A DNA stretch of 64,000 nucleotides from a virus. Its lineage: Duplodnaviria; Heunggongvirae; Uroviricota; Caudoviricetes. The position numbers were made by a program, and so were the translations under genes. Shown in pieces: positions 37,009 through 58,713 of this stretch (within the stretch, counting starts at the first letter, position 1; each line of letters starts with the position of its first letter). The DNA is taken from IMG/VR virus record IMGVR_UViG_3300023184_000031, positions 106,256 through 170,255 of that record. One strand, written 5' to 3'. The notes under the pieces were generated by a model. It was not told where the DNA came from and made no database searches. It saw only the letters and a program-made list of their open reading frames with translations.

Positions 37009-37079
37009 TGTGATATGATGTAACGGTAACATTACAGATTTTGATTCTGTCCTTCCTGGTTCGAATCCAGGTGTCACAT
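37009..37079 (+). tRNA. tRNA-Gln(TTG).
   Basis: Acceptor tgtgata/tgtcaca. D-arm atgt-aacggta-acat. Anticodon stem acaga/tctgt with loop ttTTGat. T-arm cctgg-ttcgaat-ccagg. No CCA encoded. Confidence 0.75.
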
Positions 37080-37084
37080 CTAAT

Positions 37085-37187
37085 AGTCAGGTGGCAGAGT
37101 GGACGAATGCTAACTAGGAAGAGTCTGAGGGGTGATAACCTGGTATCGATACCCTGATGACCGCAGGTTCGAATCCTGTCCTGACTA
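37085..37187 (+). tRNA. Atypical ~103 nt class-II (Ser-type) tRNA-like gene with an enlarged central region.
   Basis: Perfect 7-bp acceptor agtcagg/cctgact. Ser-like D-arm 'tggcagagtggacgaatgc'. T-arm gcagg-ttcgaat-cctgt. The only central stem I can draw (ctagg/cctgg) encloses ~20 nt rather than a 7-nt anticodon loop. Confidence 0.45.
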
Positions 37188-37311
37188 CTTGATCAACAAG
37201 GCACTCATGTTAACCCGGACTTGTGGGGTGCTTTAAAAAACAAACAAGAAAGGGAGTACCGTTATTTTGCTGGTTTTGAAGATTCGGTACGCTCAACAAA
37301 TCAGCAGCGCT

Positions 37312-37384
37312 GCAGCCTTAGACGAGCGGTTAAGTCGTCTCCCTTTCACGGAGAAGATCATGGGTTCGAATCCCATAGGTTGTA
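37312..37384 (+). tRNA. tRNA-Glu(TTC).
   Basis: Acceptor gcagcct/aggttgt (with G-U pairs). Anticodon stem tctcc/ggaga with loop ctTTCac. T-arm atggg-ttcgaat-cccat. Confidence 0.65.
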
Positions 37385-37411
37385 CTTGTTTTCGAACCCT
37401 TTATATATTTA

Positions 37412-38645: not shown

Positions 38646-39062
38646 ATGGTAACAAGTCAACAAGCATTAAAGAAATACGGAGACCCAACACTAGAAAAAA
38701 GTATGATAGTTTGGGACGTTCCAACTAATTTAGAAATAGGAGTTATTCCTAAAAAATTATACTGCAACAAAGATATAGTTGCTCCATTAACTCAAGCATT
38801 TACTAATTTAATTAGTACAGGTAAAGTAAGTGAACTTAAAACATTCGATGGTTGCTTCAACATCAGAAAAAAGCGTGGACTTAGCTCAATGTCATTACAT
38901 AGCTGGGGTATAGCAATTGATGTTAATGCCGCTTGGAACCAATTAAATATGGTTCCTACACTAACACCAGGATTTGTAAAATGTTTTACAGACGCTGGAT
39001 TCGAATGGGGTGGTACCTGGACTAGAAAAGATGGTATGCATTTCCAGTTAGCAAAAATATAA
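38646..39062 (+). CDS. Endolysin, peptidase M15 family (L-Ala-D-Glu / D-Ala-D-Ala peptidase type).
   Basis: 'MSLHSWGIAIDVN' (H...D zinc ligands). 'GFEWGGTWTRKDGMHFQL'. 138 aa. Confidence 0.7.
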   Translation: MVTSQQALKKYGDPTLEKSMIVWDVPTNLEIGVIPKKLYCNKDIVAPLTQAFTNLISTGKVSELKTFDGCFNIRKKRGLSSMSLHSWGIAIDVNAAWNQLNMVPTLTPGFVKCFTDAGFEWGGTWTRKDGMHFQLAKI

Positions 39063-39111: not shown

Positions 39112-39609
39112 ATGTACAAGATAAAACAATTCTTTAGACGCATTCGTAATCTATATCGTTGGTTTCCTATTATATGGAAAGACCAAGATTGGGATGATCA
39201 CTATATATTTGAAATACTCAAATTTAAATTAACAAACCAAGCTGACTATATTGGTAGATATGACAGACACACTTGTGCCAAGCGTGATGCTGAAAGAATG
39301 ATGTTATGTGTTCGCTTAATTGAAAAAGTACAAGATGAATATTATGGAACTGAGTATTTGGATTATGTAGAAACAGAATATAACTTTATCCCTAGTGACC
39401 ATTGTGAAGACTGCAGTGAATTAAAAATAGTTGACATCAGCGATACTTTAGATGAATATTTCAAGAAATATCCTCGCATCTATAAACAAATAGAAGATAA
39501 ATCAAATAGAAGAAAAGTAGCATTTAGAATGAGTAGTATCAATCACAACAGAGCTAGAAAATTATTATTTAAAATATTAGAAGAAAATATTGAAAGATGG
39601 TGGGATTAA
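39112..39609 (+). CDS. Hypothetical protein.
   Basis: ORF. Confidence 0.45.
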   Translation: MYKIKQFFRRIRNLYRWFPIIWKDQDWDDHYIFEILKFKLTNQADYIGRYDRHTCAKRDAERMMLCVRLIEKVQDEYYGTEYLDYVETEYNFIPSDHCEDCSELKIVDISDTLDEYFKKYPRIYKQIEDKSNRRKVAFRMSSINHNRARKLLFKILEENIERWWD

Positions 39610-39674
39610 TTATAGCGGCTATAGTATCAGTTATAGCTGGGATTTTACTTTTTTCATGGGCTGATAAAAAATAA
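39597..39674 (+). CDS. Tiny single-TM peptide, 25 aa.
   Basis: 'MVGLIIAAIVSVIAGILLFSWADKK'. Sits inside the lysis region. Not in the ORF track. Confidence 0.3.
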   Translation: MVGLIIAAIVSVIAGILLFSWADKK

Positions 39675-39677
39675 GTT

Positions 39678-39800
39678 ATGGATACAATATTACATATGTT
39701 AGGTATTTGTGGTGATCATAATGCACACACCAACCTAATTTCATTATTAACAAGTGAGATGCAATATGCATTATCATACATTAAAAATTATTTCAGATGA
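39678..39800 (+). CDS. Small hypothetical protein, 40 aa.
   Basis: ORF MDTILHMLGICGDHNAHTN... with ATGA overlap to the next gene. Confidence 0.25.
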   Translation: MDTILHMLGICGDHNAHTNLISLLTSEMQYALSYIKNYFR

Positions 39801-40135
39801 ATATAATATGGGGAATACTGTGGGGATTAGCAGCGCAAATAACTACTTTTATACAATTACAAGGCCAATTAAAATATGATTTTCTAAAACAAAATACCTG
39901 GTTTACAGTGTTAATGGGTATTCCTATTTCATTTATGTTTATGCAATCAGTAAAGAATTTCGTTGCTGGATTTCATGGTCAAATATGGCCTTCACGATTA
40001 ATAGGTTTTGGTATTGGTGTAATTGTATTTACAGTAATGTCTGAATTATTATTTAAAGAACCATTCACAACTAAAACAGGACTCTGTCTATTTTTAGGAA
40101 TTTGTATAATAGCGATTCAGGTATTCTGGAAATAA
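39797..40135 (+). CDS. Multi-pass small membrane protein (holin candidate, or EamA/ArnE-like).
   Basis: 112 aa with 3-4 hydrophobic segments, next to the endolysin. Confidence 0.45.
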   Translation: MNIIWGILWGLAAQITTFIQLQGQLKYDFLKQNTWFTVLMGIPISFMFMQSVKNFVAGFHGQIWPSRLIGFGIGVIVFTVMSELLFKEPFTTKTGLCLFLGICIIAIQVFWK

Positions 40136-40167
40136 GTGATATTTATTGTCACAAAACCATTATTACC

Positions 40168-41526
40168 ATGAAAAAGTTGATCACCCTCTTGCTGACTCTC
40201 TCTGTCCTTGTTGGAGCAGAAGCTCAAATCAAAAACATAGGACCAAAAGTAAACAGTACATACCACGAAATTCGCCCACTCGCTTCCGCAGACGGAACGA
40301 CTCTGTACTTCACAGTTCAAGGCAATCCAATTAACAAAGCTAAAGACGGACAAGACATTTGGATGTCTAAACGTGACTCTTTAGGTGAATGGGGTAAAGC
40401 ACAACGCTTACCAAATTACATTAACAGTGAAAAATATAATGGTGTATTTTCCATCTCAGCTGATGGTAATACATTAGTAATTAGAGGCAGGCGAAGCTCT
40501 TCAGGTTCGACTACACGCGGCTTTTCCAAGATTACAAAAATGGAAAATGGTGATTGGAGTATTCCTGAACCTTTAAAAATCCATGATTATGACAGATTAT
40601 CAAGAGGTATATATACAGGTGCTACTTTATCACCTGATGAAAAAGTATTGATAATGTATTTTTCTAATGAAATGAATAGTGATATGAATGACTTATGGAT
40701 AAGTCGTTTAAATGAAACTACAGGTGAATACTCAACACCATCTAAATTAAGTTTAAGCGAAGAAGATAATGATGAAATGAGTCCTTATATTGCCCCAGAC
40801 AATAAAACACTTTACTATGCATCAGACAGAAAAGGTGGTTTGGGTGGAATGGATATTTGGATGACAAGAAGAGTAGATGATACTTGGGAAAATTGGACAA
40901 TACCTGTTAATATGGGTAAACCAATTAACTCTAAAGGCTGGGATGCTTATTTTTCAGTAGATGTATTTGATAAAGCAGCTTACATCACTACAAACACTAA
41001 ATATAGCTTACCAGGTGATATGGGTGGTGCAGATATTGCTTATGTTAAATTACCAGACTCATTATTACCACTACCTATACCTCCAGCTCCTCCAGTATAT
41101 GATACTATTTATATTACTATAACTGATACTGTATATCAAAAGCAATTATGTGATCCACTTGATACTTTAAGTGGTGAAGAATTAGCGAAAGAATATAACA
41201 AAGGTAGAATATTATTTGATTTTGGTAGCTCAGTATTAAGACCCGATTCATATCATCAATTAGATATTATTGTTAAAATGATGAAAAATGACCCTAATAT
41301 GAAGATTGAATTAAGCGGTCACACAGATGCTGTTGGTATGGATAAAAGAAATATAGCTCAATCAGAAGAAAGAGCAATATCAACTAAACTATATTTAATA
41401 TCTAAAGGAATTGACCCTAATAGAATAAATACAGTGGGAATGGGAAATAAAGCACCTGTAGCACCAAATAGTACAGATGGTGGTCGTCAGTTGAATAGAA
41501 GAGTAGATATGAAGATAATAAATTAA
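40168..41526 (+). CDS. Secreted TolB-like repeat protein with C-terminal OmpA peptidoglycan-binding domain.
   Basis: Signal peptide 'MKKLITLLLTLSVLVGAEAQ'. C-terminal 'ELSGHTDAVGMDKRNIAQSEERA...NRRVDM' OmpA_C motif. Start trimmed to 40168. Confidence 0.75.
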   Translation: MKKLITLLLTLSVLVGAEAQIKNIGPKVNSTYHEIRPLASADGTTLYFTVQGNPINKAKDGQDIWMSKRDSLGEWGKAQRLPNYINSEKYNGVFSISADGNTLVIRGRRSSSGSTTRGFSKITKMENGDWSIPEPLKIHDYDRLSRGIYTGATLSPDEKVLIMYFSNEMNSDMNDLWISRLNETTGEYSTPSKLSLSEEDNDEMSPYIAPDNKTLYYASDRKGGLGGMDIWMTRRVDDTWENWTIPVNMGKPINSKGWDAYFSVDVFDKAAYITTNTKYSLPGDMGGADIAYVKLPDSLLPLPIPPAPPVYDTIYITITDTVYQKQLCDPLDTLSGEELAKEYNKGRILFDFGSSVLRPDSYHQLDIIVKMMKNDPNMKIELSGHTDAVGMDKRNIAQSEERAISTKLYLISKGIDPNRINTVGMGNKAPVAPNSTDGGRQLNRRVDMKIIN

Positions 41527-41548
41527 TACCTCACCATAAGAAAAATTA

Positions 41549-41574
41549 GGGCTTGGTTTTCCAAGCCCTTTTTT
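41549..41574 (+). terminator. Rho-independent terminator (copy 1 of a repeated hairpin).
   Basis: 'gggcttgg-tttt-ccaagccc' + 'tttttt'. The identical sequence recurs at 42241. Confidence 0.8.
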
Positions 41575-41680
41575 ATTGGGCAAGATAATATTCATATATT
41601 TAAGAACACGAATACTCCTTCGTAGAATATTAATCCGTTAAATTTCGATTTAACAATTTTTTTAACAAAACAAAACAAAC

Positions 41681-42217
41681 ATGAAAAAAGTAGTATTATT
41701 AGTAGTTGCTCTTATTGCAGCAATTACATTCACAAACGCACAAAACAACTTCAAAAAATCTAATAAATTTGTAGAAGGTACAGTATCTTACACAAAAGCT
41801 ACAGGTACTGATGCAGAATATGGATTTCAACCAACAGTTGGATATTTCTTAACTGATAGATTCGCAATTGGTGCTTCAGGCGCATTCGGTAAAGATGCAG
41901 CTGGTGTTAAAACAAACGGCATTGGCGCATTTGGGCGTTGCTATGTATTAAATATTGGTCAGAATTTGAAAACATTCTCACAATTAAACATAGGAACTGC
42001 ATCTGTTAATGATGCTGGTATTAAAACCTCTACATTTGGAGTTAATCTTGGTTTAGGTATAAACTATTTTGTTAGTCCTAAATTAGCTCTTACATTAAAT
42101 GTAGCAAATCTTGTAGATTATACAAGTATTAAATCTAACTCAACTTTTAATATTGGTTGGGAAGGTGTAACAAATCCATTAAGTACTTCTAAATTCGGAG
42201 TTTTATATAAATTCTAA
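41681..42217 (+). CDS. Outer-membrane beta-barrel protein.
   Basis: Signal peptide 'MKKVVLLVVALIAAITFTNAQ'. Alternating amphipathic strands. C-terminal '...FGVLYKF' aromatic terminus. Confidence 0.7.
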   Translation: MKKVVLLVVALIAAITFTNAQNNFKKSNKFVEGTVSYTKATGTDAEYGFQPTVGYFLTDRFAIGASGAFGKDAAGVKTNGIGAFGRCYVLNIGQNLKTFSQLNIGTASVNDAGIKTSTFGVNLGLGINYFVSPKLALTLNVANLVDYTSIKSNSTFNIGWEGVTNPLSTSKFGVLYKF

Positions 42218-42240
42218 TTTACACTATACGAAGGAGTTAA

Positions 42241-42266
42241 GGGCTTGGTTTTCCAAGCCCTTTTTT
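42241..42266 (+). terminator. Rho-independent terminator (copy 2, identical to 41549).
   Basis: 'gggcttggttttccaagccctttttt'. Confidence 0.8.
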
Positions 42267-42279
42267 GTATATTCATTGT

Positions 42280-43047
42280 ATGAAAACAATAGTATTAGGC
42301 GATACACACGGTCGCTCACAATGGAAATTAATAACACATCAAGAAAACGCTGATAGAGTAATTTTTATAGGTGATTACTTTGACAGTTATGATCTATCCG
42401 CGGTTGAGCAAATGCATAATTTCAAGGAAATTATTGAGTATAAGGAAACATCATTCACAAATGAAGGTACTTTAGACCAACATAAAACAGAAGTAATATT
42501 ACTAATTGGTAATCACGATCATCACTACTACCCAGAAATTGGTAATACAGGCACATCAGGTTATCAATATGGAGCAGCAGCCGCTATTAGCCAAGTAATA
42601 GATGAAAATAGAAAACATCTACAAATGGCTTACAGTTTTGATAAATTCCTATTTACCCACGCTGGTGTTAGTCCCGTGTTTATGGATCAAGTGTTTGGTG
42701 AAGATGGATGGGATAAGAATGATATAGTTAAGTTATTAAATGATAAAATGACATATCAACCTAAAACATTTAAGTTTAATGGATTGGAAGGTAGTGGTGA
42801 TAATACAACACAAACACCAATATGGATTAGACCAAGAAGTTTAATGTCTGTTAATAAGAAACATAAAAACGGATTAAAAAACGATTATATTCAAATAGTA
42901 GGGCATACACAAATGAAACATCTAGATCTAGTAGGATCAGATAAATTCACAGGAGGTAAATATTACTTTGTAGATACGTTGGATACTAGTGGTGAATATT
43001 TAATTATTGATGATGGAGAATTAAGAACAAATAGCTGGAAATCGTAA
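42280..43047 (+). CDS. Calcineurin-like metallophosphoesterase.
   Basis: 'IVLGDTHGR'. 'FIGDYFDSYD'. 'LIGNHDHHYY'. Start trimmed to 42280. Confidence 0.75.
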   Translation: MKTIVLGDTHGRSQWKLITHQENADRVIFIGDYFDSYDLSAVEQMHNFKEIIEYKETSFTNEGTLDQHKTEVILLIGNHDHHYYPEIGNTGTSGYQYGAAAAISQVIDENRKHLQMAYSFDKFLFTHAGVSPVFMDQVFGEDGWDKNDIVKLLNDKMTYQPKTFKFNGLEGSGDNTTQTPIWIRPRSLMSVNKKHKNGLKNDYIQIVGHTQMKHLDLVGSDKFTGGKYYFVDTLDTSGEYLIIDDGELRTNSWKS

Positions 43048-43108: not shown

Positions 43109-43282
43109 ATGAGATCTAATTTAAAAACCACCCTTGGTGGTATTTTAGCAGCAGTTGGTACTTTCTTAGTAAACTCACAAACTGGGACTTTAAATCTAGT
43201 AGGACAAATATGTCAAGTGATTGGTATATTCCTTATTGGTGCTATGGCTCAAGATGCAACTTCAGCTAAAAAAGAAGACTAA
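43109..43282 (+). CDS. Small membrane protein.
   Basis: 'MRSNLKTTLGGILAAVGTFLV...IGIFLIGAMA' two hydrophobic helices. Confidence 0.45.
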   Translation: MRSNLKTTLGGILAAVGTFLVNSQTGTLNLVGQICQVIGIFLIGAMAQDATSAKKED

Positions 43283-43308
43283 TAACTTCTGAAACCAAAA
43301 CTAATCAA

Positions 43309-43333
43309 CCCAGCTGAAAGGCTGGGTTTTTTT
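43309..43333 (+). terminator. Rho-independent terminator.
   Basis: 'cccagc-tgaaag-gctggg' + 'ttttttt'. Confidence 0.75.
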
Positions 43334-45939: not shown

Positions 45940-47484
45940 ATGAAAAACTTAAAAAACCTTAAACTGCTTATATTAGCAGTGGTTTTATTATTCGGGTGTA
46001 GAAAAGATTCACTTTTCATTACAGATAATCCTGAAATTCCTAGTGTTGAATCTTTAGGCACAGGAGTAGTTCCTGATGACCCCGCTGCTGTTGAAAAAGT
46101 ACAGTTAAGAATTACACAAGATCTACTTGATGCTAAAATAGATTCTCTATTAGGTATTCCATCTTCTGAAAGAATAATAGCTAAAGGACCAAAAGAAAGA
46201 ATCCCACCTACTATTTCAATTACATCACCCTCTAACAACGACTCATTATCAGGTACTGTTACTATTAAATCAATTGCTACTGATAATATAGGTGTTGTAT
46301 CAGTTGCTTGTTATATTGATAATAACATATTAGCAACTGATGTAGCCGCTCCTTGGGATTTTACATTAAATACTCTAAACAGAGCAGGTGGTACGCATAT
46401 TATTAAAGTGACAGCTAAAGATGCTGCTGGTAATAGTGCATCTGCTTCTATTCAGGTAATAGTATATAACGGCTCAGGTGGTGGTGGAACTATTACTGAT
46501 ATAACTCCTCCATCAATTACAATTTTAACTCCTATAAATGGAACAACATTTAATATGGGAGATAACGTTAATATAACAACATCAGCAACAGATAATGTTG
46601 GTATAAGTAGTGTAAGTTTTAGTATTGATGGTACATTATGGGCTATAAAAACAATATCACCATATTCATATAACTGGTCTGCAATAAATGTACTTTCAGG
46701 TACACATACTATAACTGCAACAGCTAAAGATGCTGCTGGTAATAGTACATCAACAACTAATTTAATAACAATCAATACAATAATAACTCCACCAGTAAGC
46801 GGAGTACCTTCATCATTTGTATTAGTTACACCAACACCTAGAAGTCAAGGCGGAGAAGGCTCTTGTATGGCATGGGCAGTTGGCTACTCAGCATTCTCAA
46901 TAGATTGGGTATATAGAAATAATCAATCATCTTATAGTACAGCAACAAATATATTTAGCCCAGAATATCTTTATGATTATTATAGAATTAGATATGAAAT
47001 CCCAAACGGACAAGATCCCGCGAATTGTAATTTAGGTAGCTCACTTCAAGGTTGTGTTCAAATTATTCAAGACTCTGGGATTTGTACTTGGGATATGATG
47101 CCATATCAAAGTGGTATTTGTAATACAATGCCAAGTTCATCTCAATTTGCTAATGCTAGCCAACACAAATCAATTGGAACAACCAGAATTTATTCTACTG
47201 ATAGCGCTGGTATAAAAAATGCTATATATAATTTAAAGCATCCGATAATGATAGGAATGGATATTGATAATAATTTCTATAATGCTAGAGCTGGATACAT
47301 TTGGAATACATTTGGTACCAGCGTTGGTGGACACGGTTTAGCAGTAATTGGATGGGATGATAGTAAACATGCATTTAAAATAATGAACTCATGGGGTACA
47401 GGTTGGGGAGATGGAGGATTTTTATGGGTTGATTATAATATATTCTTTGCTCATACTTCATATTTTGTATATTATTTTAATTAA
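45940..47484 (+). CDS. Lipoprotein with two Ig-like domains and a C-terminal papain-family (C1) cysteine peptidase domain.
   Basis: 'LLFGCRKD' lipobox. Two ~80-aa repeats ending 'TAKDAAGNS'. 'QGGEGSCMAWAVGYS' (catalytic Cys). 'GGHGLAVIGWDD' (His). 'NSWGTGWGDGGFLWV' (Asn/Trp). Confidence 0.75.
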   Translation: MKNLKNLKLLILAVVLLFGCRKDSLFITDNPEIPSVESLGTGVVPDDPAAVEKVQLRITQDLLDAKIDSLLGIPSSERIIAKGPKERIPPTISITSPSNNDSLSGTVTIKSIATDNIGVVSVACYIDNNILATDVAAPWDFTLNTLNRAGGTHIIKVTAKDAAGNSASASIQVIVYNGSGGGGTITDITPPSITILTPINGTTFNMGDNVNITTSATDNVGISSVSFSIDGTLWAIKTISPYSYNWSAINVLSGTHTITATAKDAAGNSTSTTNLITINTIITPPVSGVPSSFVLVTPTPRSQGGEGSCMAWAVGYSAFSIDWVYRNNQSSYSTATNIFSPEYLYDYYRIRYEIPNGQDPANCNLGSSLQGCVQIIQDSGICTWDMMPYQSGICNTMPSSSQFANASQHKSIGTTRIYSTDSAGIKNAIYNLKHPIMIGMDIDNNFYNARAGYIWNTFGTSVGGHGLAVIGWDDSKHAFKIMNSWGTGWGDGGFLWVDYNIFFAHTSYFVYYFN

Positions 47485-47507
47485 TAATAACTTACCATAA
47501 TTAATTA

Positions 47508-47532
47508 AGCCCTCATTTTGAGGGCTTTTTTT
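47508..47532 (+). terminator. Rho-independent terminator.
   Basis: 'aagccctca-tttt-gagggctt' + 'ttttt'. Confidence 0.75.
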
Positions 47533-47561
47533 ATCATATTTATTGGAAACCAATTAAAAGT

Positions 47562-48137
47562 ATGAAACAGTCCCTCATTGTGCTGTTACTGCTGACCTTC
47601 TCTTTTATACTTAAAGCACAACCACTCGCCCAACAAGAAGTAGAACTATGTCCTGGTATTAGAACTAATTTTACTTACTTTTCCACTGCAATTACCACAA
47701 CAGGAAACTGGACGTGGACACTAAATGGAATCCCTATCTCCACAATTAGTAATACTAATATAAACTGGACTGATACAGGATATTTCACTATTAAAGTACA
47801 ATATATTGATAGCTGCGGTGTTGATACTAAATCATATATAGTACATGTATCTAAATGTAGACCAGCAGTTATATATTTTCCAAACGCATTTACACCCAAT
47901 AGAGATGGAATTAATGATGGTTGGAGACCTATAGGCGTTAATATAGTAAGTATAAAATATAACATCTGGAATAGATGGGGTGAAAGAGTATTTGAGGGTC
48001 ATAGCATGAATGATAAATGGAATGGGATGTATAAAGGAATGCCTCAAGATATAGCTACTTTTGTTGTACAAGCATTTTGGAAAGATATTACAGGAAAAGA
48101 GGGATATTACAAAGGTTTTATTATATTGATAAGATGA
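47562..48137 (+). CDS. Secreted protein with type-B T9SS (gliding-motility-associated) C-terminal domain.
   Basis: Signal peptide. 'VIYFPNAFTPNRDGINDGWRPIG...KWNGMYKGMPQDIATFVVQAF' matches the PNAFSPNGDGIND-type CTD. Confidence 0.7.
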   Translation: MKQSLIVLLLLTFSFILKAQPLAQQEVELCPGIRTNFTYFSTAITTTGNWTWTLNGIPISTISNTNINWTDTGYFTIKVQYIDSCGVDTKSYIVHVSKCRPAVIYFPNAFTPNRDGINDGWRPIGVNIVSIKYNIWNRWGERVFEGHSMNDKWNGMYKGMPQDIATFVVQAFWKDITGKEGYYKGFIILIR

Positions 48138-49258
48138 GAATATTATTAGTTATATTACTATTACCCTTTTTGGGTTATTCACAATGCGGTAATTTAGATT
48201 TTGAAACAGGTAATTTTACTGGTTGGAATGCTAGATTAGGTACTTGTTGTCCTATTGCTTTACCAACAGCTGGATTTGCTAATACCAGACAAACAATAAT
48301 GACCCAAGGCATTGATCCTCACACTTGTGGAGGATTAAGAACAGTATATCAAGGAACATACTCAGCAAGATTGGGCAATGATAGAGTAGGTGCTCAAGCA
48401 GAAGGATTATCATATTCATTTGTTGTGACACCTCAAACAAATATTATTAAATATGCTTATGCTGTTGTATTTCAAGACCCAGGACACTCTCCAGCTGATC
48501 AACCTCGATTTCAATCACGTGTTAGATTAGCAAATGGTACAGTAATACCTTGTACTGATTATACAGTAACAGCAGCATCTAATTTACCTGGGTTTCAGTA
48601 TTGTCCACCTCCACCTCCTGATACAGCAAATGTTGCTTGGAAAGATTGGACTGAAGTTGCTTTAGATTTATCTGCTTATACTGGTCAAACAGTATCACTT
48701 GAATTTGAAACAGGCGATTGCAAATTAAGAGGTCACTATGGATATGCTTATATAGATGCTGTTCAATGTGGAATGTTAGATACTCATGTACCCTATTGTA
48801 GTGGAGACAATTTATTAACTATAAACGCAATGGGTGGTTTTGTTAGTTATCTTTGGGAGAACGGAGATACAACTCAAACAACGACTATCAATCCTAATTT
48901 ATACGATACTGTATCTTGTGTTGTAACAACATATAGCGGCTGTCAAATAACATTACATTATATATTAGACGCAACACCAATTATTCCCTCATTTACAGCA
49001 CCTAATGTTTGTTTAGGTAACCCAACTCAATTCAATAACACAACACAACCACTTCCCGGTTATACACTGCTATATAGTTGGAATTTTGGTGATAATAATA
49101 CCTCTACTGTTGTTTCTCCATCTCATACCTATTTATCTGTAGGAACATATAATATTACACTTACTGCTAATGCATTAGGTAGTTCGTGTAATGCATCTGT
49201 TCAGGGACAAGTAATAGTAAAACCATTACCAACAATAACCCCAATTATACATAATTAA
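48134..49258 (+). CDS. Secreted protein with C-terminal PKD domain.
   Basis: Signal peptide 'MRILLVILLLPFLGYSQC'. 'YSWNFGDNNTSTVVSPSHTYLSVGTYNITLTA' PKD signature. ATGA overlap with the upstream gene. Confidence 0.7.
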   Translation: MRILLVILLLPFLGYSQCGNLDFETGNFTGWNARLGTCCPIALPTAGFANTRQTIMTQGIDPHTCGGLRTVYQGTYSARLGNDRVGAQAEGLSYSFVVTPQTNIIKYAYAVVFQDPGHSPADQPRFQSRVRLANGTVIPCTDYTVTAASNLPGFQYCPPPPPDTANVAWKDWTEVALDLSAYTGQTVSLEFETGDCKLRGHYGYAYIDAVQCGMLDTHVPYCSGDNLLTINAMGGFVSYLWENGDTTQTTTINPNLYDTVSCVVTTYSGCQITLHYILDATPIIPSFTAPNVCLGNPTQFNNTTQPLPGYTLLYSWNFGDNNTSTVVSPSHTYLSVGTYNITLTANALGSSCNASVQGQVIVKPLPTITPIIHN

Positions 49259-49267
49259 AAAGAAAAC

Positions 49268-51565
49268 ATGAAAAAAATCGTTTTATTATTAACACTATTA
49301 TTTACAATAGCATTCGCTAATGCTAGGAAATTTTATTTTAGTTCTTCAACCGGTAACGACAGTTACACTACAACACAAGCACAAAACCAAGCTACACCTT
49401 GGGCAACATTAAGGAAATTAACACAGATGACTACCAATACAAATGGTACAACTGTATTTAGAGCAGGTGATAGTATTTGCTTTAAACGTGGAGATGTATT
49501 TGCTAATGGAATGGCTAATGGGTATTGTTCAGCTTATTGGTGGAATGTACAAGGTGATGCTTATTTTACAGCACCAAGTGGCACACCAGGTAATCCAATA
49601 GTAATTACTAATTATGGTGATCCAACTTTACCATTACCAAACTGGTTATATCCAACTGCAACATACCCTGTATCGACTTGGAATAGTAGAGAAGGTAGAG
49701 CAGTAATTGAATTTTCAGGCGTTCACGATATTGTTGTAGACGGTATCCAATCAAATGATTTTAGAGTACCAGAATGGGATAAATCGAATCCTGGTTATAC
49801 AGCAGGTTGGATATTAGGAGAACCTACACGTTCACCTGCTTATGGACAAGCAGGTTGTGTTTCAGATACTAATTTAAGAAAACAATTTGTAAGAAGATTT
49901 ACACTTAAAAACTGTGTATTCAATAATTGTATCTATGGTATTCAAGATTGTGCAATGTGGGATAGTAAAATAACTAATTGTACATTTACAAACTTTAAAT
50001 CATCAGCTGATACAGCTGGTACACATGATATAATGGCAGGTTCATTAGATGGATTGTGTGGATTTAATCTTGAAATTAGTCATAACCTTATTAAAGGAGC
50101 TTGGGGTAAATCAGGTAGGATTGGTTCGTGTGGTGGATTAGGTGGTGTAGCATTAGATATCTTTTGTCTACAAGATTCAAGAGTATGTTACAACACTGTT
50201 ATAGATTGTGATGGATTTATTGAGGTGGGTAATTTAGATCATAACGACACATTGAGTGGTGCTCAAAGAGATACATTTGCCTTTAATAAAATTATTAACT
50301 GTGGTCAGTTTGCTTATATTCATGGCTCAGTAGGAGATCCATTCGCAGGTAACAACCACCATTTAGCTTTTTGGAATAATATATGCATATCAAATAATAA
50401 AGATAGGTTTATAGGTTGGGGATTTGGTAAAGATGTTTATGGAGACGGACAAGGATTTGGAGTTGGTACACGTCAACCTTGGTGGTTTCTAAGAGACCCA
50501 TTTAATACACTAAATGTTGATCAAATGAGACCAACAGTAAATACTGTTCGAGGTTCTAATGTTATAACAGTAAGTACAAATGCAGGAATTTCTATTGGGT
50601 CAGTTTGGTTTACGGATGATGATAATTTAGCTAGTAATAATTATAAAACTGTTACTGTAACGGCTATTAATGGTAATACGCTTACATTAAGTGACACAGC
50701 AACAAGAACTGTTAATGGCTTTGTTTGTTCTGGTGAATCAGGATTTTATCTCCCAGTATCTAATCAAACCTGGAGCAATCCAGCTAATGGAGCTTGGAGT
50801 AATTATGGTGGTGGTAGATTTACAATACAATACGCTGGCGACTTATATGTTCATGGTAATCAATATGATACTTTATTTGATATGAGAAATAATATATTCT
50901 ATTGGACTACAGGTATGCAGGGATTATATAATAGAACTAGATTTAAAAGAAATAATAATATATATATGCCAATTGGTGGCTGTCGATATCCATCAGCATT
51001 AGGAGGTACTTTAAATTCAAATGAAAGAATAATAACATCAAAAATATTTACTGATACTTTAGCTTTATATCCTGAAAATTGGGACTTACACCCAGTAGAT
51101 ACGAGTTATGCTTATAGAGGTGGAACTCCAATTCCAGGATTTAATGTTGATTTTGAAGGATATCCAATCACAGCTCCATTTATAGGATTATATACAAAAT
51201 TAGGTGCTGTTAGTATTGATACTTGTAGATTTACTTATGGACAATGGTCAGTATGCAATAGTAGTTATCAAACAAGACCATACACTACCTCACCTGTTAA
51301 CTGTATAGGAACACCTCCATTAGATAGTATTCAAAGAACTTGCAGTAATACAATTACAGTAACTCGTTTTTATTATAATTCAAGTCGCACTAGTATTCGT
51401 GTTGAATCTAACATAGCAGGGACGATAACAATTCAGAACACATTAGGACAAGTAGTTCGTGTGTTAAGTTATCCTGCAGGTAATAACTTGATTAATGTGA
51501 GTATGTTAGCAAGAGGATTTTATTTAGCATCAACTTACAATCAAACAATTCGATTCTTTAGATAG
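49268..51565 (+). CDS. Secreted right-handed beta-helix (pectate-lyase/depolymerase-like) protein with type-A T9SS C-terminal sorting domain.
   Basis: Signal peptide 'MKKIVLLLTLLFTIAFANA'. Repeated 'NC.F.N' beta-helix rungs. C-terminal ~80 aa 'TITIQNTLGQVVRVLSYPAGNNLINVSMLARGFYLASTYNQTIRFFR'. Confidence 0.7.
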   Translation: MKKIVLLLTLLFTIAFANARKFYFSSSTGNDSYTTTQAQNQATPWATLRKLTQMTTNTNGTTVFRAGDSICFKRGDVFANGMANGYCSAYWWNVQGDAYFTAPSGTPGNPIVITNYGDPTLPLPNWLYPTATYPVSTWNSREGRAVIEFSGVHDIVVDGIQSNDFRVPEWDKSNPGYTAGWILGEPTRSPAYGQAGCVSDTNLRKQFVRRFTLKNCVFNNCIYGIQDCAMWDSKITNCTFTNFKSSADTAGTHDIMAGSLDGLCGFNLEISHNLIKGAWGKSGRIGSCGGLGGVALDIFCLQDSRVCYNTVIDCDGFIEVGNLDHNDTLSGAQRDTFAFNKIINCGQFAYIHGSVGDPFAGNNHHLAFWNNICISNNKDRFIGWGFGKDVYGDGQGFGVGTRQPWWFLRDPFNTLNVDQMRPTVNTVRGSNVITVSTNAGISIGSVWFTDDDNLASNNYKTVTVTAINGNTLTLSDTATRTVNGFVCSGESGFYLPVSNQTWSNPANGAWSNYGGGRFTIQYAGDLYVHGNQYDTLFDMRNNIFYWTTGMQGLYNRTRFKRNNNIYMPIGGCRYPSALGGTLNSNERIITSKIFTDTLALYPENWDLHPVDTSYAYRGGTPIPGFNVDFEGYPITAPFIGLYTKLGAVSIDTCRFTYGQWSVCNSSYQTRPYTTSPVNCIGTPPLDSIQRTCSNTITVTRFYYNSSRTSIRVESNIAGTITIQNTLGQVVRVLSYPAGNNLINVSMLARGFYLASTYNQTIRFFR

Positions 51566-51634: not shown

Positions 51635-52642
51635 ATGAAAAAATTACTAGTGTGTCTTGTGACATTGTGGATATTGTCTACAAATGTCAACGCCCAATGT
51701 ACAGACGTATTTGGGAATATAGTCGAGTGTCCTACTGAGAACGACTCGCTAGCAGTTTACAACAACGCTTTAAAAGTATATGATTTTTACGAAAAGAGTC
51801 CTAATTATAGAAAATTATCTTCTAGAAAGTTAAGAACAAGACAAGACGTATTAAATTGTTTCTATAGTTTACAAGATGCAGTTGATAGTTTTAGAACATT
51901 ATGGCAAAGAAGAGAACAAGTATTAAAAGGAGCTGATTTACCTGGAGTATTATTACCTAGAGGGGGTAGAAATATACCTATAAATGAATATTATCAATAT
52001 ATTGATGCTTATAGATTCTATCAACGCGAATTAGAAAATGGAATATTAAATACTAATTCACCATTTCCTATTTATGATACTAGAATCAATCCTTTAGTTG
52101 TTAACTCATATAACAATGAAATAGGATATGATGATTTCAATGGTGACTTTGTTAACGTAGCATTATATATTCCAGTAACAATTAAGCCATTTAGATTATT
52201 AACTGATTCAGAAAAAGTAATAAGACAAAAGATACTTAGTGGTATAATTCCAAATAAGGTTATTCCAAAAACTACTAAAAAGGATAAACCAAAACCACAA
52301 ATACCACCTCCAGGTAAAAGAATAACATCTGATACTACATTATTACCTAGTGCTAATATTGATTTTGATACAATAAGATTAGTTAAAAAAGATGAAATGA
52401 TATTTGGTAAAGTACCATCTGATGGTATTCCTATATACTTATGGGAACCAAATGGTGGTGGATGGATAATTGGTTGGATGGTAAAAAGACAATTTAGAAA
52501 ATTCTTACCAACAGATGAACATTATTGGTCAGTACCTAAACGTATTAAAGCATTTTTAAATGATGATGCTGCTGTTGAGAAATACTTAAGATTAAAATAT
52601 GGTGACTACTATGATGGTTACTATTTTGGAGGGCAAGATTAA
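51635..52642 (+). CDS. Secreted hypothetical protein.
   Basis: Signal peptide 'MKKLLVCLVTLWILSTNVNA'. Confidence 0.5.
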   Translation: MKKLLVCLVTLWILSTNVNAQCTDVFGNIVECPTENDSLAVYNNALKVYDFYEKSPNYRKLSSRKLRTRQDVLNCFYSLQDAVDSFRTLWQRREQVLKGADLPGVLLPRGGRNIPINEYYQYIDAYRFYQRELENGILNTNSPFPIYDTRINPLVVNSYNNEIGYDDFNGDFVNVALYIPVTIKPFRLLTDSEKVIRQKILSGIIPNKVIPKTTKKDKPKPQIPPPGKRITSDTTLLPSANIDFDTIRLVKKDEMIFGKVPSDGIPIYLWEPNGGGWIIGWMVKRQFRKFLPTDEHYWSVPKRIKAFLNDDAAVEKYLRLKYGDYYDGYYFGGQD

Positions 52643-52691
52643 CTTCGTACATTCATAGTGTTAAATAATTAAAAACCAAAAACAATAAGTT

Positions 52692-53492
52692 ATGAATCAA
52701 GAATTGAACACAAGTAGCATGATGAGTAGCAACAGTTACTCACTTGATGAAATTAAAATTATGGCTCCATCAGTATTTACTACTGAGAAAGCAGCTCACC
52801 TAACAGACAAATATATCCAAACACCAACATCACGTGTGGTTGAGGATTTAATGGCATTGGGTTGGCAGGTAACTAAAGCACAAGAAGTTAGATCTAAGAA
52901 ATTTAAAGGATTCCAAAAACACATTGTCGTATTTAGACACCCAGACATTCAAATTAAGGGTAAGAACGGTGATGATTCGTTTCCACAGATCCTATTGACA
53001 AATAGTCATGATGGTAAAGCAGCATTTAATTTCAGAGTAGGTATATTCCGTCTTGTGTGTAGTAATGGATTGGTTATTAGTGATGCTGATTTTAGTAATG
53101 TGAGCATCCGCCATACCAATTACACATTTGAGTCATTACAGGCGAAAGTAAACGAGGTAATTGAGAAGTTACCAGGTCTGGTACAGAAGATTAATCTGTT
53201 TAAAAACACAAACCTAACTGAAGCTCAAATGACTGATTTCGCTTATAAAGCAGTATCATTGCGTAGCAAAGCAACAGTTAATATTATGGAAGTGCTTGAA
53301 GCGACTCGTAGTGAAGATCAAGGTAATGATTTATGGGCTGTGTTTAATAGAGTACAAGAGAAAGTGTTGGGTGGTAGTTATAGCTACGGACGTAAACAAC
53401 GTAAGGCACGTTCAGTAACATCATTCCAAAAGGATATTGAGTTGAATGAGAAATTGTTTGAATTAGCAGGTTCGTATTTAGTAGAAGCTTAA
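52692..53492 (+). CDS. Phage/plasmid-associated protein (DUF932-like), tentative.
   Basis: 'FRLVCSNGLVI' and overall size recall the DUF932 family. Preceded by the conserved promoter motif and followed by a terminator. Confidence 0.4.
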   Translation: MNQELNTSSMMSSNSYSLDEIKIMAPSVFTTEKAAHLTDKYIQTPTSRVVEDLMALGWQVTKAQEVRSKKFKGFQKHIVVFRHPDIQIKGKNGDDSFPQILLTNSHDGKAAFNFRVGIFRLVCSNGLVISDADFSNVSIRHTNYTFESLQAKVNEVIEKLPGLVQKINLFKNTNLTEAQMTDFAYKAVSLRSKATVNIMEVLEATRSEDQGNDLWAVFNRVQEKVLGGSYSYGRKQRKARSVTSFQKDIELNEKLFELAGSYLVEA

Positions 53493-53498
53493 GAAATT

Positions 53499-53520
53499 GG
53501 AGGGGCGAAAGCCCCTCCTT
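53499..53520 (+). terminator. Rho-independent terminator.
   Basis: 'ggaggggc-gaaa-gcccctcc' + 'tt'. Confidence 0.65.
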
Positions 53521-53531
53521 ATATTTACGTT

Positions 53532-53867
53532 ATGGAAAAGATATACAAGTGTCCTAAATGCGACGAACAAGAAAATTTACATTTCAATTATGATTACAAT
53601 CAACAACACAGACCTATTAAAGATGTGTTATGCAATGAATGTGGTACAACATTTGATGGTAATATGTCTGTAGATGCTCTTCTAACTAAACCCGGTTTTG
53701 TTGAACGCAGAATGGCGCTTGGTAAACACAACAACGACAAACAATGGGATGACATATATGAAGAATATTCTATGGAACAATATCCCCCCTTTGGTGGGCC
53801 ATTTACTGACGCATTATCATTTATTGATTGGTTAAAACAATATTATATAGTACCAGAAAGAATATAG
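53532..53867 (+). CDS. Zinc-ribbon protein.
   Basis: 'CPKCDEQ...CNECG'. Confidence 0.45.
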   Translation: MEKIYKCPKCDEQENLHFNYDYNQQHRPIKDVLCNECGTTFDGNMSVDALLTKPGFVERRMALGKHNNDKQWDDIYEEYSMEQYPPFGGPFTDALSFIDWLKQYYIVPERI

Positions 53868-53869
53868 CT

Positions 53870-54193
53870 ATGGGTAAATACACAGAAGAAGAATGGATTG
53901 CATTAAATAATGCTGTACCCTCAAAGCAAGAATATCCTGAATTAGAAGGGACATTAGCCCTTTGTAACGAAATTATTAATAATAGAGAAATGAATAAAGG
54001 AAAATTATTTAAAACAGGATGGGATAATTGGTTATTAAAAGTAAATGGTATATCATATCCAATTCATCAACAACATTCTTTTTGGTTAAAGATATTTGGT
54101 GAAGAAGGAATGGAACTTGCTTTTGAAAGGCAAGGTAGTGAAGTTATATTAAAAGCAAACGGGCCAGATACACACTCCTACACACAAGATTAA
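53870..54193 (+). CDS. Hypothetical protein.
   Basis: ORF; start trimmed to MGKYTEEEW. Confidence 0.4.
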   Translation: MGKYTEEEWIALNNAVPSKQEYPELEGTLALCNEIINNREMNKGKLFKTGWDNWLLKVNGISYPIHQQHSFWLKIFGEEGMELAFERQGSEVILKANGPDTHSYTQD

Positions 54194-54196
54194 GTT

Positions 54197-54481
54197 ATGA
54201 AAAAAAATAAAGATGAAATCATTGTTGAAGAAATGATCAACAAAATGTTTGAGATAGCAGGTCATCAAGTTACCTTTGAAGATATTAAAGGTAGAACTGA
54301 TAACTGGTATCAACAATGGACAATGACTGAAGCGCAAAACAAAGAATGGAGAGAATGGGGTGTAAAATACCTTAAAAAACAGAAAGGTTTGTATAAGCAC
54401 TACGCTGAAAGACAAATGGCTATGTTTGATCTGAATTACGGATTAAAATTCGAACAATTAGAAACAAATAAAACAATATAA
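54197..54481 (+). CDS. Hypothetical protein.
   Basis: ORF with 'taagttatg' start context. Confidence 0.45.
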   Translation: MKKNKDEIIVEEMINKMFEIAGHQVTFEDIKGRTDNWYQQWTMTEAQNKEWREWGVKYLKKQKGLYKHYAERQMAMFDLNYGLKFEQLETNKTI

Positions 54482-54483
54482 CA

Positions 54484-54789
54484 ATGGCAAGAGCTAAAAA
54501 AACAACAGTACAAGAATTAAAGGAATTGATTGAAGCAACTCCTAAAGCAAAAACATTAACTAAAGCTCAATTCAAAACACTTGAAGAAGTATCTGAGAAA
54601 CTATCAGCTATAAGACGTGGTTTGTATGAGTTAGAAGGCGAAGAAAACATTAGTACAATTATGTTTAAAGTAGGATCAGTACATACTAATGCTGATTGGT
54701 GTGAAGATGCAGTAAGTGATATCATTAATTCATTTGATGAGGATAATTATGAAGATTGTGATGATGAGGATGATGATAATAGATGGTAA
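54484..54789 (+). CDS. Acidic hypothetical protein.
   Basis: ORF with Asp/Glu-rich C-terminus. Confidence 0.45.
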   Translation: MARAKKTTVQELKELIEATPKAKTLTKAQFKTLEEVSEKLSAIRRGLYELEGEENISTIMFKVGSVHTNADWCEDAVSDIINSFDEDNYEDCDDEDDDNRW

Positions 54790-54817
54790 GGCAAAACAAT
54801 AATCGTACATTCACGTT

Positions 54818-55372
54818 ATGATAATATTTAAAGGTAAAAAACGTAAATACATTCACACTAGAGATATTCATTTAAAGGATATTCGCGCTGTGTTTTTTCC
54901 AAAGAACTTCCATGAAAAATATCAATACTTAGGTTCAATACCTTGGAATGAAGAGGGAGCTATGTTCAAAGCAATGGAGCCGCTAGTAATCTTTATGGAT
55001 TATAAAGCAAAACCTAAATGGTGTCCTAGATGGGTATTACGTTTTTTACATTTATTTGGTAGTGATAACTCAATTGTTAGAGTAAGGAATAAACGTTTAT
55101 ATGAATTAGAGAGACGTTTGACTAAAGGTATTCAACTCACTGACTATAAGACTAAATGGGAGTGGTACGATTTAAGAATATCTGTTTATGGTACTGATCA
55201 AATGCAGAATCTAGCTGATGCTATTGAACATAAGTTTTATAGTGATGGACTTAGAGAAGATCTTGCAGATCAAATTAAAGAATTAGATCCAGATACTAAT
55301 TTCGATAAAGGATATTGTACTGAGAATTTAAAAAAAGAATTAGATAGATTAGAAACCATAAACGATAAATAA
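54818..55372 (+). CDS. Hypothetical protein.
   Basis: Preceded by the 'cgtacattcacgttatg' motif. Confidence 0.5.
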   Translation: MIIFKGKKRKYIHTRDIHLKDIRAVFFPKNFHEKYQYLGSIPWNEEGAMFKAMEPLVIFMDYKAKPKWCPRWVLRFLHLFGSDNSIVRVRNKRLYELERRLTKGIQLTDYKTKWEWYDLRISVYGTDQMQNLADAIEHKFYSDGLREDLADQIKELDPDTNFDKGYCTENLKKELDRLETINDK

Positions 55373-55373
55373 T

Positions 55374-55622
55374 ATGAGCGGAGGAGCATTTGACTACCAA
55401 CAATATAGTATTAAAACGATTGCTGAAGAAATTGAGCAAATAATAGAGCATAATTCTTACAAATTCCCAGACGATATAATTGAGGAATTTAAGACGGGTG
55501 TAGATATACTTAGAAAAGCTCATGTTTATGCTCAACGAATTGATTGGTTAATAAGTGGGGATGATGGCGAAGAATCATTCCGTGAACGATTAAAAGAAGA
55601 ATTAGATTGGTTGGCAAAATAA
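55374..55622 (+). CDS. Hypothetical protein.
   Basis: ORF. Confidence 0.45.
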   Translation: MSGGAFDYQQYSIKTIAEEIEQIIEHNSYKFPDDIIEEFKTGVDILRKAHVYAQRIDWLISGDDGEESFRERLKEELDWLAK

Positions 55623-55653
55623 CAATTGTATATTCAATTCAAATAAATAAGTT

Positions 55654-56214: not shown

Positions 56215-56233
56215 TTAAAAACCAAAAACATAA

Positions 56234-56700: not shown

Positions 56701-56730
56701 CATATTATATTTATAATAAAATAATTTAAC

Positions 56731-57157: not shown

Positions 57158-57182
57158 TATTTATGATTAAAAATTAAAAAAC

Positions 57183-57616: not shown

Positions 57617-57663
57617 GGCACAATTTCAGTCGTATATTCACGTTAACCAAAAATAAATAAGTT

Positions 57664-58711: not shown

Positions 58712-58713
58712 TT

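Follow-up and report, generated by a model that had tools for sequence, protein, structure and literature searches.

The stretch under study, here called the window, comprises 64,000 nucleotides (nt) of a tailed-phage record in IMG/VR (IMGVR_UViG_3300023184_000031, positions 106,256 to 170,255). Around window positions 40,168 to 43,047, three genes follow one another, encoding a secreted protein with PD40 and OmpA_C domains (PD40-OmpA), a small predicted outer membrane beta-barrel, and a calcineurin-type phosphoesterase; two identical, terminator-like hairpins flank the barrel gene. Comparison with related phages supports the view that the barrel gene is a self-contained cassette that recombination at the terminator hairpin has apparently added or removed. 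The overall reading, to which we assign a probability of about 0.72, is that envelope genes are shuffled at twin hairpins in a T4-like phage of Bacteroidota, in the manner of the promoter-early stem-loop (PeSL), a mobile regulatory cassette known from coliphages and vibriophages of the T4 type (Arbiol et al. 2010, PMC2839356; Comeau et al. 2014, PMC4122927).

The repeat is exact over 27 nt (AGGGCTTGGTTTTCCAAGCCCTTTTTT), with 692 nt from the start of one copy to the start of the other and with similarity between the copies confined to these 27 nt. Two identical hairpins flanking the barrel gene were what the original prediction, made from the letters alone, had reported, and its 26-nt string is indeed found exactly at 41549 to 41574 and 42241 to 42266. 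Each copy folds into a 9- to 10-bp G+C-rich stem with a T-run behind it (-18.0 and -21.4 kcal/mol; z scores of -2.9 and -5.6, respectively). Beyond these two, the 64-kb window holds no copy of the hairpin string even at three mismatches, and 0 of 100 shuffles matched. The 692-nt unit between the hairpins consists of a promoter-like box, a conserved leader, the gene for the barrel of 178 amino acids (aa), and the second hairpin copy. At the level of motifs, this unit has both a promoter-like box and a terminator, whereas the phosphoesterase gene has neither. An inverted repeat of 21 nt (41614 to 41634 and 42217 to 42237; 81% complementary, perfectly so over an 11-nt core, ACTCCTTCGTA and TACGAAGGAGT) also lies just inside the two hairpins and links the 5' leader of the barrel transcript to its 3' end. 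It could reflect pairing of the mRNA ends or chance, and repeats of similar size occur elsewhere in the same region.

All comparison sequences are metagenome contigs of related phages (given L-numbers, such as L001 and L016), drawn only from a large protein collection and its contigs; GenBank phages and IMG/VR yielded no close relatives of the cassette region or of the two envelope proteins. Three of these contigs, from three samples (L011 to L013), are 100% identical to one another and 93 to 95% identical to the window at the nucleotide level, and carry both hairpins and the barrel gene. Two further contigs, from two other samples and two assemblers (L019 and L020), have one hairpin and no barrel gene at the locus. 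The latter pair is 92% identical to the window over 39563 to 41574, and 97.5 to 98.7% identical to L011 to L013 across the 3' end of the PD40-OmpA gene. Their homology to the window stops at the last base of the repeat (41574) and returns only for 45 nt (42240 to 42284), an element made up of hairpin 2 and GTAYATTCATTGTATGAA, which contains the box, 4 nt, and the first 5 nt of the phosphoesterase open reading frame (ORF). In the single-copy element, the sequence to the left of copy 1 thus meets the sequence to the right of copy 2, and this junction is the product expected from an exchange between the copies, or the target of the reverse insertion. That the cassette was acquired or duplicated by recombination at the terminator had been proposed at the outset, and the near-identical relatives with and without the barrel gene, differing exactly at the 27-nt repeat, support recombination at that place.

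A more distant relative places the insertion within an otherwise conserved gene block. The order in L016 is M15 endolysin, small protein, 112-aa membrane protein, phosphoesterase, 55-aa protein, and 68-aa protein; the stop codon of the 112-aa gene overlaps the phosphoesterase start by 4 nt (ATGA), and the flanking genes are 64 to 94% identical to those of the window. Because the same two genes overlap in the syntenic L016, the 2,144 nt that separate the 112-aa stop codon from the phosphoesterase ATG in the window represent an insertion. The M15 peptidase gene opens the conserved block (M15, 165 aa, 112 aa, phosphoesterase) that was the target of this insertion, and the 57-aa membrane protein gene is kept beside the phosphoesterase gene in relatives (Table 1). 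Searches of the 112-aa membrane protein against Pfam, PHROG, and NCBIfam profiles gave no family match.

Table 1. Features of the cassette locus and of related positions (window coordinates unless a contig is named)
Feature	Position	Strand	Evidence or remarks
M15_4 peptidase (endolysin-type)	38646..39062	+	Pfam Peptidase_M15_4 56.7 bits; PHROG endolysin families; 78% identity to L016 homolog
112-aa membrane protein, four hydrophobic segments, left border of insertion	39797..40135	+	75% identity to L016 1064-1402
2,144-nt segment, window-only relative to L016	40136..42279	.	PD40-OmpA, hairpin 1, barrel unit, hairpin 2 and promoter-like box
PD40 and OmpA_C protein, 452 aa, secreted	40168..41526	+	Pfam OmpA 74.5 bits, PD40 67.7 bits
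Hairpin copy 1, 27-nt exact repeat, intrinsic-terminator-like, after PD40-OmpA	41548..41574	+	
Promoter-like box of barrel unit, GGCA-N11-ATATATTTA	41579..41602	+	Read from sequence
A-rich 5' leader of barrel gene, AACAATTTTTTTAACAAAACAAAACAAAC	41652..41680	+	Unique in window; conserved in L001, L006, L008
Predicted 178-aa 8-stranded outer membrane beta-barrel	41681..42217	+	OMP_b-brl 30.1 bits; AlphaFold2; Foldseek
Hairpin copy 2, 27-nt exact repeat, terminator-like, after barrel gene	42240..42266	+	
GTATATTCA box and 4 nt before phosphoesterase ATG	42267..42279	+	
Calcineurin-type metallophosphoesterase, 255 aa, predicted cytoplasmic	42280..43047	+	Metallophos 30.6 bits; 64% identity to L016 homolog, same relative position
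57-aa membrane protein	43109..43282	+	75% identity to L016 homolog; also in L011, L012
Next terminator hairpin, then GGCA-N11-ATATATTTA	43307..43328	+	Hairpin sequence differs from 27-nt repeat
335-aa secreted protein	51635..52642	+	Homolog directly upstream of PD40-OmpA in three relatives
Homologs of 335-aa protein	L014 5973-6962; L016 6002-6994; L017 6001-6993		

Both envelope genes are found elsewhere in related phages. In L014, L016, and L017, the PD40-OmpA gene lies directly behind the gene for a 317- to 330-aa secreted protein, near genes for Phage_holin_10, YkuD, a 764-aa protein, and PKD/CHU_C proteins. The corresponding 335-aa gene of the window is directly followed by DUF932, as it is in a closer relative (L046). 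The slot behind the 335-aa gene is likely the ancestral position of PD40-OmpA, and because the partner gene now adjoins DUF932, PD40-OmpA appears to have moved by ~11 kb in the window lineage. The barrel gene is placed upstream of GroEL in L001, L006, and L008, and on the 320-kb contig L004 it lies one small (65-aa) gene downstream of a 331-aa homolog of the 335-aa protein; in the window lineage it stands between PD40-OmpA and the phosphoesterase, and only in this lineage are the two envelope genes adjacent. In every context, the barrel gene keeps an A-rich leader, a promoter-like box, and a terminator, and the leader is nearly identical 5' of barrel genes that are only 74 to 79% identical in protein. 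Because the GroEL-adjacent barrel genes carry another terminator, the hairpin belongs to the site and not to the barrel gene. Upstream of GroEL in the window, where GroES and a small ORF are located, we found no trace of the barrel unit, and the leader occurs only once in the window (Table 1). In the relatives, it is the barrel gene, not GroES, that lies directly upstream of GroEL.

These arrangements suggest two acquisitions in the window lineage. The ancestral order would have been endolysin, 165-aa protein, 112-aa membrane protein, and phosphoesterase. One acquisition would be a promoter-less PD40-OmpA_C gene, ending in the hairpin, which would have arrived from behind the 335-aa gene and would be read from upstream at its new site. 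The other would be the autonomous 692-nt barrel unit, which includes the second hairpin copy. The two 27-nt copies probably serve as joints of homologous recombination, such that exchange between them would delete the barrel unit, possibly as a circle, and the reverse reaction could insert it at any resident hairpin copy. The locus lies in a plastic stretch of the genome, whose genes are parted by composite elements of terminator hairpin and promoter-like box.

Such composite elements are common in this part of the window. Between 35.8 and 47.5 kb, each of the eight + strand terminators has behind it first an ATATTTA-type or GTATATTCA box and then an ATG. A related motif, GGCA-N11-[GT]TAnAT[AT][CT]A, is present in 21 copies, compared with 0.39 in shuffles; 18 of the 21 lie upstream of small ORFs at 52632 to 63971, and the others are at 3338, 19895, and 35595. 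This motif is nearly always placed 5 to 38 nt 5' of the small-ORF ATG, with a leader such as TTAACCAAAAAATAATTAGTT. The box of the barrel unit has the geometry of the repeated motif (GGCA-N11-[GT]TAnATTCA) with one mismatch, and equivalent boxes precede the barrel gene in relatives; at copy 2, the 3' arm of the hairpin takes the place of the motif's upstream half. From these features, we infer that the hairpins terminate transcription and that the boxes promote it. A scan of the window for sigma-70 promoters found 73 where 77 were expected, i.e., no enrichment, and no Rfam match at the hairpins reached the gathering score.

The original prediction held that each of the three genes is followed by a strong terminator. 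This is so for PD40-OmpA and the barrel gene. The 61 nt 3' of the phosphoesterase gene have only a weak A+T-rich fold without a T-run, and the next terminator comes after the 57-aa membrane protein gene. Nor does PD40-OmpA look like an independent cassette at this locus, as it has a terminator behind it but only 32 nt and no promoter-like box of its own upstream.

An exact scan with a 24-mer of the hairpin retrieved 4 IMG/VR contigs and 14 metagenome contigs. All four of the viral contigs and 10 of the 14 metagenome contigs are T4-like relatives, either with a family-B DNA polymerase (PolB) 47 to 60% identical to that of the window or with a shared queuosine-type gene set. In these relatives, the hairpin immediately precedes polB or occupies one of three other gene borders, and in each case a T-run, a TAT-rich box, and, within 15 to 30 nt, an ATG come after it. 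The string AAATTA-GGGCTTGGTTTTCCAAGCCC-TTTTTTGTAY.TTCA thus recurs, with 24 to 42 nt unchanged, at different gene borders of phages whose PolB proteins have diverged to this extent from the window's. Among the six copies upstream of polB, the upstream flanks are unrelated (23 to 40% identity) in 13 of 15 pairs, whereas the core is 95 to 100% identical and, for five of the six contigs, polB itself is 88 to 93% identical; in most pairs, homology therefore starts with the hairpin. No compensatory stem changes were seen at these polB-upstream sites. The equivalent site of the window has a GIY-YIG/NUMOD1 homing endonuclease gene (2789 to 3475) that overlaps the polB start region, and no hairpin. 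One related contig, L034, has a variant hairpin, GAGCTTGGTTATCCAAGCTT (minus strand of the stored locus, 4934), with a compensatory stem change and the same T-run and TATATT box; the same contig also holds the canonical hairpin. We also considered whether the hairpin is a common host repeat and rejected this. In 596 Gb of genomes, the 24-mer had seven exact matches, all in unrelated, non-Bacteroidota genomes with different flanks, which is consistent with chance at a rate of ~1 per 85 Gb.

On the features that could be compared, the case matches, and would be a further example of, the terminator/promoter-mediated gene shuffling already described in T4-type phages. PeSLs flank nonessential genes, mark the breakpoints of indels between close relatives, border gene 43 (polB), and can excise as mini-circles (PMC2839356, PMC4122927). 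In RB49, ORFan192 sits between two PeSLs, and phi1 has one PeSL at that place (PMC2839356). Likewise, the element described here is, by its motifs, an intergenic composite of stem-loop terminator and promoter-like box in a T4-like phage; its copies flank an apparently nonessential gene, with the gene between two copies in some close relatives and a single copy in others; and it coincides with breakpoints of homology, also at the polB border in relatives. There are differences as well. The predicted host is a member of the Bacteroidota rather than of Enterobacteria or Vibrio, the promoter-like boxes do not follow the sigma-70 consensus, the other terminators of the region have other sequences, and the hairpin does not vary among phages with PolB proteins only 47 to 60% identical to the window's. 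The cargo is also not an ORFan but a predicted outer membrane protein with a recognizable function. The PeSL model, described for coliphages and vibriophages, would thereby come to cover T4-like phages of Bacteroidota with a different promoter grammar, and the locus offers a clean population-level case in which a single gene between two copies of a 27-nt element is either there or missing.

As for the phage itself, the window indicates a divergent T4-like phage of a Bacteroidota host. It encodes a family-B DNA polymerase, a clamp loader, GroES/GroEL, and many glycosyltransferases, and all long ORFs of its 64 kb are on the + strand. The best match of its PolB among GenBank phages is only 33.6% identical, and a nucleotide-level search of GenBank phages gave no match to the window. 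The host assignment draws on three features: a type B, type IX secretion system (T9SS) sorting domain encoded at 47562 to 48137 scores above threshold, signal peptides end in A|Q, and the nearest cellular homologs of the barrel come from Flavobacterium and Kaistella.

The gene content originally noted holds up, with Pfam matches to PD40/OmpA, OMP_b-brl, and Metallophos, and signal peptides are present on the first two proteins. By inspection, the signal peptide of PD40-OmpA, MKKLITLLLTLSVLVGAEA|Q, is of type I (AEA|Q), and the lipobox cysteine is absent. It is followed by a TolB-type beta-propeller (PD40) region, a proline-rich linker, and the OmpA_C domain, to which PDB sequence matches are restricted. 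The OmpA family (PF00691) scores 74.5 bits there against a gathering cut-off of 27.2, with the full model covered at residues 349 to 444. The TD..G and NRRV peptidoglycan-binding motifs are present; published structures of OmpA-like domains show that these motifs contact peptidoglycan. The top NCBIfam matches are CHU_0125_OmpA (169.5 bits; E = 1e-49) and T9SS_PorE (156.9 bits; E = 6e-46), well below the curated cut-offs of 620 (NF053607) and 600 (NF052230), respectively. We therefore do not place the protein in the CHU_0125 family, nor do we regard it as PorE. The latter is defined by a lipoprotein signal together with a set of domains (TPR, propeller, CRD, and OmpA_C), but in PD40-OmpA the signal peptide is not followed by a cysteine, and the model's N-terminal portion has no match. 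Its eight nearest longer homologs (513 to 632 aa) also fall below both cut-offs, with CHU_0125 scores of 180 to 258 bits, so PD40-OmpA and these homologs appear to form a third, uncurated branch.

The closest characterized proteins are nonetheless informative as to layout. CHU_0125 is a Pal-like outer membrane integrity protein of Cytophaga hutchinsonii (PMC5891637), and both it and PorE/PG1058 of the T9SS have PD40-type propeller repeats followed by an OmpA_C domain, as the phage protein does. In contrast to them, the phage protein is 60 to 190 aa shorter at the N terminus and lacks the lipoprotein cysteine. The resemblance to PorE, together with the T9SS type B sorting domain encoded nearby, raised the idea that PD40-OmpA is a T9SS adaptor, paired with the 335-aa protein as a PorP/SprF-type barrel. 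The 335-aa protein (signal peptide VNA|QC; 110 homologs) was modeled by AlphaFold2 as an alpha/beta protein with a mean predicted local distance difference test (pLDDT) score of 80; it had no Foldseek match in the PDB and no Pfam or NCBIfam family even at E = 0.1. A direct role as T9SS adaptor is therefore unsupported, given that PD40-OmpA does not qualify as PorE and that its 335-aa partner does not resemble PorP. We likewise rejected a link to defense or anti-defense, since a PADLOC scan returned only generic MotB/OmpA_C similarity.

The 178-aa protein is, by model, an eight-stranded outer membrane barrel. OMP_b-brl was its only Pfam match (30.1 bits; cut-off, 28.7), and by inspection its signal peptide ends in TNA|Q and its C terminus in ...VLYKF. 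An AlphaFold2 model built from 49 sequences (pLDDT, 80.2; predicted template modeling [TM] score, 0.70) has eight long strands, the last of which is broken by a low-confidence loop. The top Foldseek matches were the OprF N-terminal domain, the OmpA transmembrane domain, Ail, NspA, and OmpX, with probability 1.0 and TM scores of up to 0.72 on the target, at only 11 to 17% sequence identity. The barrel prediction thus stands, but "OmpW-like," as the protein was first described, is too specific: OmpW structures rank only 14 to 15 and 18 among the matches, and no OmpW-family hidden Markov model matched. The protein shares its fold, signal peptide, and C-terminal aromatic residue with OmpX, NspA, OmpW, and the N-terminal domain of OmpA/OprF; unlike OmpA/OprF, it has no periplasmic domain on the barrel chain.

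Morons of lambdoid phages also encode outer membrane proteins, such as bor and lambda lom, the latter an eight-stranded barrel of the Ail/Lom family. We regard lom as the nearest functional analogy: it too is a small phage-borne eight-stranded barrel in an autonomous unit between genes that are adjacent in a relative, and Ail is among the top structural matches. The analogy has limits, as the Pfam match is to OMP_b-brl and not to Ail_Lom, the carrier is a lytic T4-like phage rather than a prophage, the gene does not differ in composition from its genome, and it is conserved across a whole phage clade.

The phosphoesterase belongs to a different category. Its Metallophos match (PF00149) scores 30.6 bits against a cut-off of 21.5, and its metal-binding motifs are complete (GDTHG, GDYFD, GNHD, and GHT). 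No signal peptide was apparent by inspection, and no PDB sequence matched. The original prediction counted three envelope-type cassettes; the phosphoesterase lacks a signal peptide and resides at the same place in L016, and we take it to be a resident gene for a predicted cytoplasmic protein, outside the cassette and not part of the envelope.

Both envelope proteins are predicted to be exported by Sec, the barrel to the host outer membrane and PD40-OmpA_C to the periplasm, where it would bind peptidoglycan. Their main role is most likely the remodeling of the host envelope during infection, with PD40-OmpA acting, by analogy with Pal, CHU_0125, and PorE, as a peptidoglycan-bound periplasmic scaffold and the barrel as an added surface or outer membrane component. 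Outer membrane stability, surface properties, and superinfection or the exclusion of other phages are candidate effects, none of which we favor. Both proteins are probably accessory rather than essential to the phage, which fits the existence of near-identical variants without the barrel unit at the locus and the movement of both genes as cassettes. Taken together, a clade of large freshwater Bacteroidota phages appears to keep genes for envelope-directed proteins (the barrel, a Pal/PorE-like binder, and T9SS-sorted proteins) and to shift them as cassettes, which makes them candidates for phage control of outer membrane stability, surface, and superinfection.

Several observations weigh against shuffling at the hairpins as we have described it. 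In L019 and L020, a thymidylate synthase gene, rather than the phosphoesterase gene, follows the 45-nt element; with this further difference downstream, the contigs are separated from the window by more than one event, and the variants are compatible with either gain or loss of the barrel unit. The hairpin has only 2 copies in the 64 kb of the window, which is part of the genome, and RB49 and phi1 carry ~50 PeSLs each. Its occurrence in seven unrelated bacterial genomes means that hairpin identity can arise by chance at a low rate. The terminator and promoter activities are read from motifs, and both the boxes and the GGCA-N11 motif fit poorly to sigma-70 and to the published Bacteroidota -33/-7 consensus. 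Protein functions are likewise predicted from sequence and model, and PD40-OmpA has no lipid anchor by which it might be coupled to the outer membrane. Additionally, several of the metagenome contigs that represent the relatives are short (some only 1.8 to 4 kb), and an assembly join at the repeat is conceivable.

This last point leads to the possibility that the duplication or the variant junctions are artifacts of metagenome assembly at a short repeat. We consider this very improbable, as the two-copy form recurs, beyond the window, in three independent contigs that differ in sample and source, the one-copy form occurs in two contigs that differ in sample and assembler, and a 27-nt repeat, being shorter than the k-mers normally used, should not cause misjoins. 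Another possibility is that the hairpins are independent or homogenized copies of a favored terminator and that the barrel gene was placed by unrelated, illegitimate recombination. The hairpin is unchanged at orthologous polB-upstream sites where coding sequence has diverged, which argues for selection on the hairpin sequence itself; the 24-mer arises in unrelated bacteria too; and similarity between the copies ends at 27 nt. Yet in relatives that are 97 to 99% identical, the break in homology coincides to the base with the ends of the repeat, the single-copy junction is the exchange product of two copies, and the different terminator of the GroEL-adjacent barrel ties the hairpin to the site, and so we judge this account unlikely. 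We also consider unlikely an integron-like arrangement in which the hairpin is a sequence-specific exchange site that deals a pool of envelope genes among T4-like phages of Bacteroidota, although the unchanged hairpin string at different gene borders and the lack of compensatory stem changes at the polB-upstream sites would agree with it. The hairpin would then be recognized by a phage-encoded factor or would spread between coinfecting phages, and the pool would include the barrel, PD40-OmpA, and perhaps the nearby T9SS-sorted proteins.

Other alternatives concern the source and the purpose of the genes. The original prediction raised a recent host origin, in which all three genes, each equipped with a terminator, would be morons captured from a Flavobacteriia genome. 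Members of Bacteroidota commonly have all three of the domain types, bacterial homologs of the porin and OmpA families exist, and a promoter-like box and a terminator belong to the barrel unit itself. The phosphoesterase, resident and with neither signal peptide nor terminator of its own, falls outside this description. The homolog search speaks against such an origin: the barrel has 57 relatives at 47 to 99% identity, after which identity drops to 31 to 37% for "porin family" proteins of Flavobacterium and Kaistella. The contexts examined for these barrel relatives were all phage-like (GroEL, a Gp23 fragment, RNA ligase, and HNH), with one close relative annotated as an uncultured Caudovirales phage and one on the 320-kb contig. 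PD40-OmpA similarly belongs to a phage-type group (443 to 467 aa; 49 to 93% identity among full-length members) distinct from cellular-type proteins of 510 to 640 aa that are 34 to 47% identical. PD40-OmpA and the barrel gene do have the position expected of morons, between genes that are adjacent in L016, but their base composition is like that of the surrounding genome: G+C is 0.345 for PD40-OmpA and 0.318 for the barrel gene, compared with a window mean of 0.316, and G+C at third codon positions (0.214 and 0.145, respectively) is within the range of neighboring genes. Given this clade-wide conservation, the distant cellular homologs, and the matching composition, recent host capture is unsupported and in our view quite improbable, and the sequence comparisons indicate that both are old, clade-wide phage genes. 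A role in lysis, with the two proteins as an outer membrane- and peptidoglycan-spanning substitute for spanins in Bacteroidota phages, would agree with their position behind the M15 endolysin and the four-segment membrane protein in the window, with the placement of PD40-OmpA within a few genes of Phage_holin_10, YkuD, and NlpC/P60 genes in relatives, and with the lack of recognizable spanin-like genes. The barrel, though, sits beside GroEL and far from lysis genes in other relatives, PD40-OmpA occurs without a following barrel gene at the locus in L019 and L020, and the two are neighbors only in the window's lineage. CHU_0125 and PorE, the nearest characterized cellular relatives of PD40-OmpA, stabilize the envelope or serve secretion rather than disrupting it (PMC5891637), and a lysis function seems rather improbable to us.

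Other parts of the window also encode proteins that may act at the cell envelope. A block of exported proteins at 45940 to 51565 represents phage-encoded T9SS cargo. It begins with a gene for a protein with Big_7 and a papain-type peptidase (45940 to 47484), followed by the one with the type B sorting domain mentioned above, a protein with a PKD domain (48077 to 49258), and a 765-aa protein whose type A sorting domain scores below threshold (49268 to 51565). The sole earlier report that we found of phage-encoded T9SS sorting domains concerns type A, in "Cryophage" (PMC7468147).

A 20-kb sugar-nucleotide/glycan cluster extends from ~13361 to 33870, and its G+C content falls to 0.22 to 0.30 in the later part. 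It includes genes for two glycosyltransferases, a GDP-mannose-dehydratase-like enzyme, a DegT aminotransferase, a thiamine pyrophosphate enzyme, a fusion of HAD and nucleotidyl-transferase domains, and GT2. A similar cluster, with APS kinase and Mom, adjoins the barrel gene in relatives. Both GroES (Cpn10, 83 bits) and GroEL are encoded by the window phage at 7550 to 9655.

Near the left end of the window, an 868-aa protein (112 to 2718) is built of a 14-aa (42-nt) unit that is repeated ~16 times and in which an H-x-E-G motif recurs. It is weakly similar to YadA heads and is probably a fiber or adhesin. A homolog of this protein is located upstream of the hairpin and polB in L024. Lastly, genes for tRNA-Gln(UUG) and tRNA-Glu(UUC) lie at 37009 to 37385, between an HNH endonuclease gene and the endolysin block.

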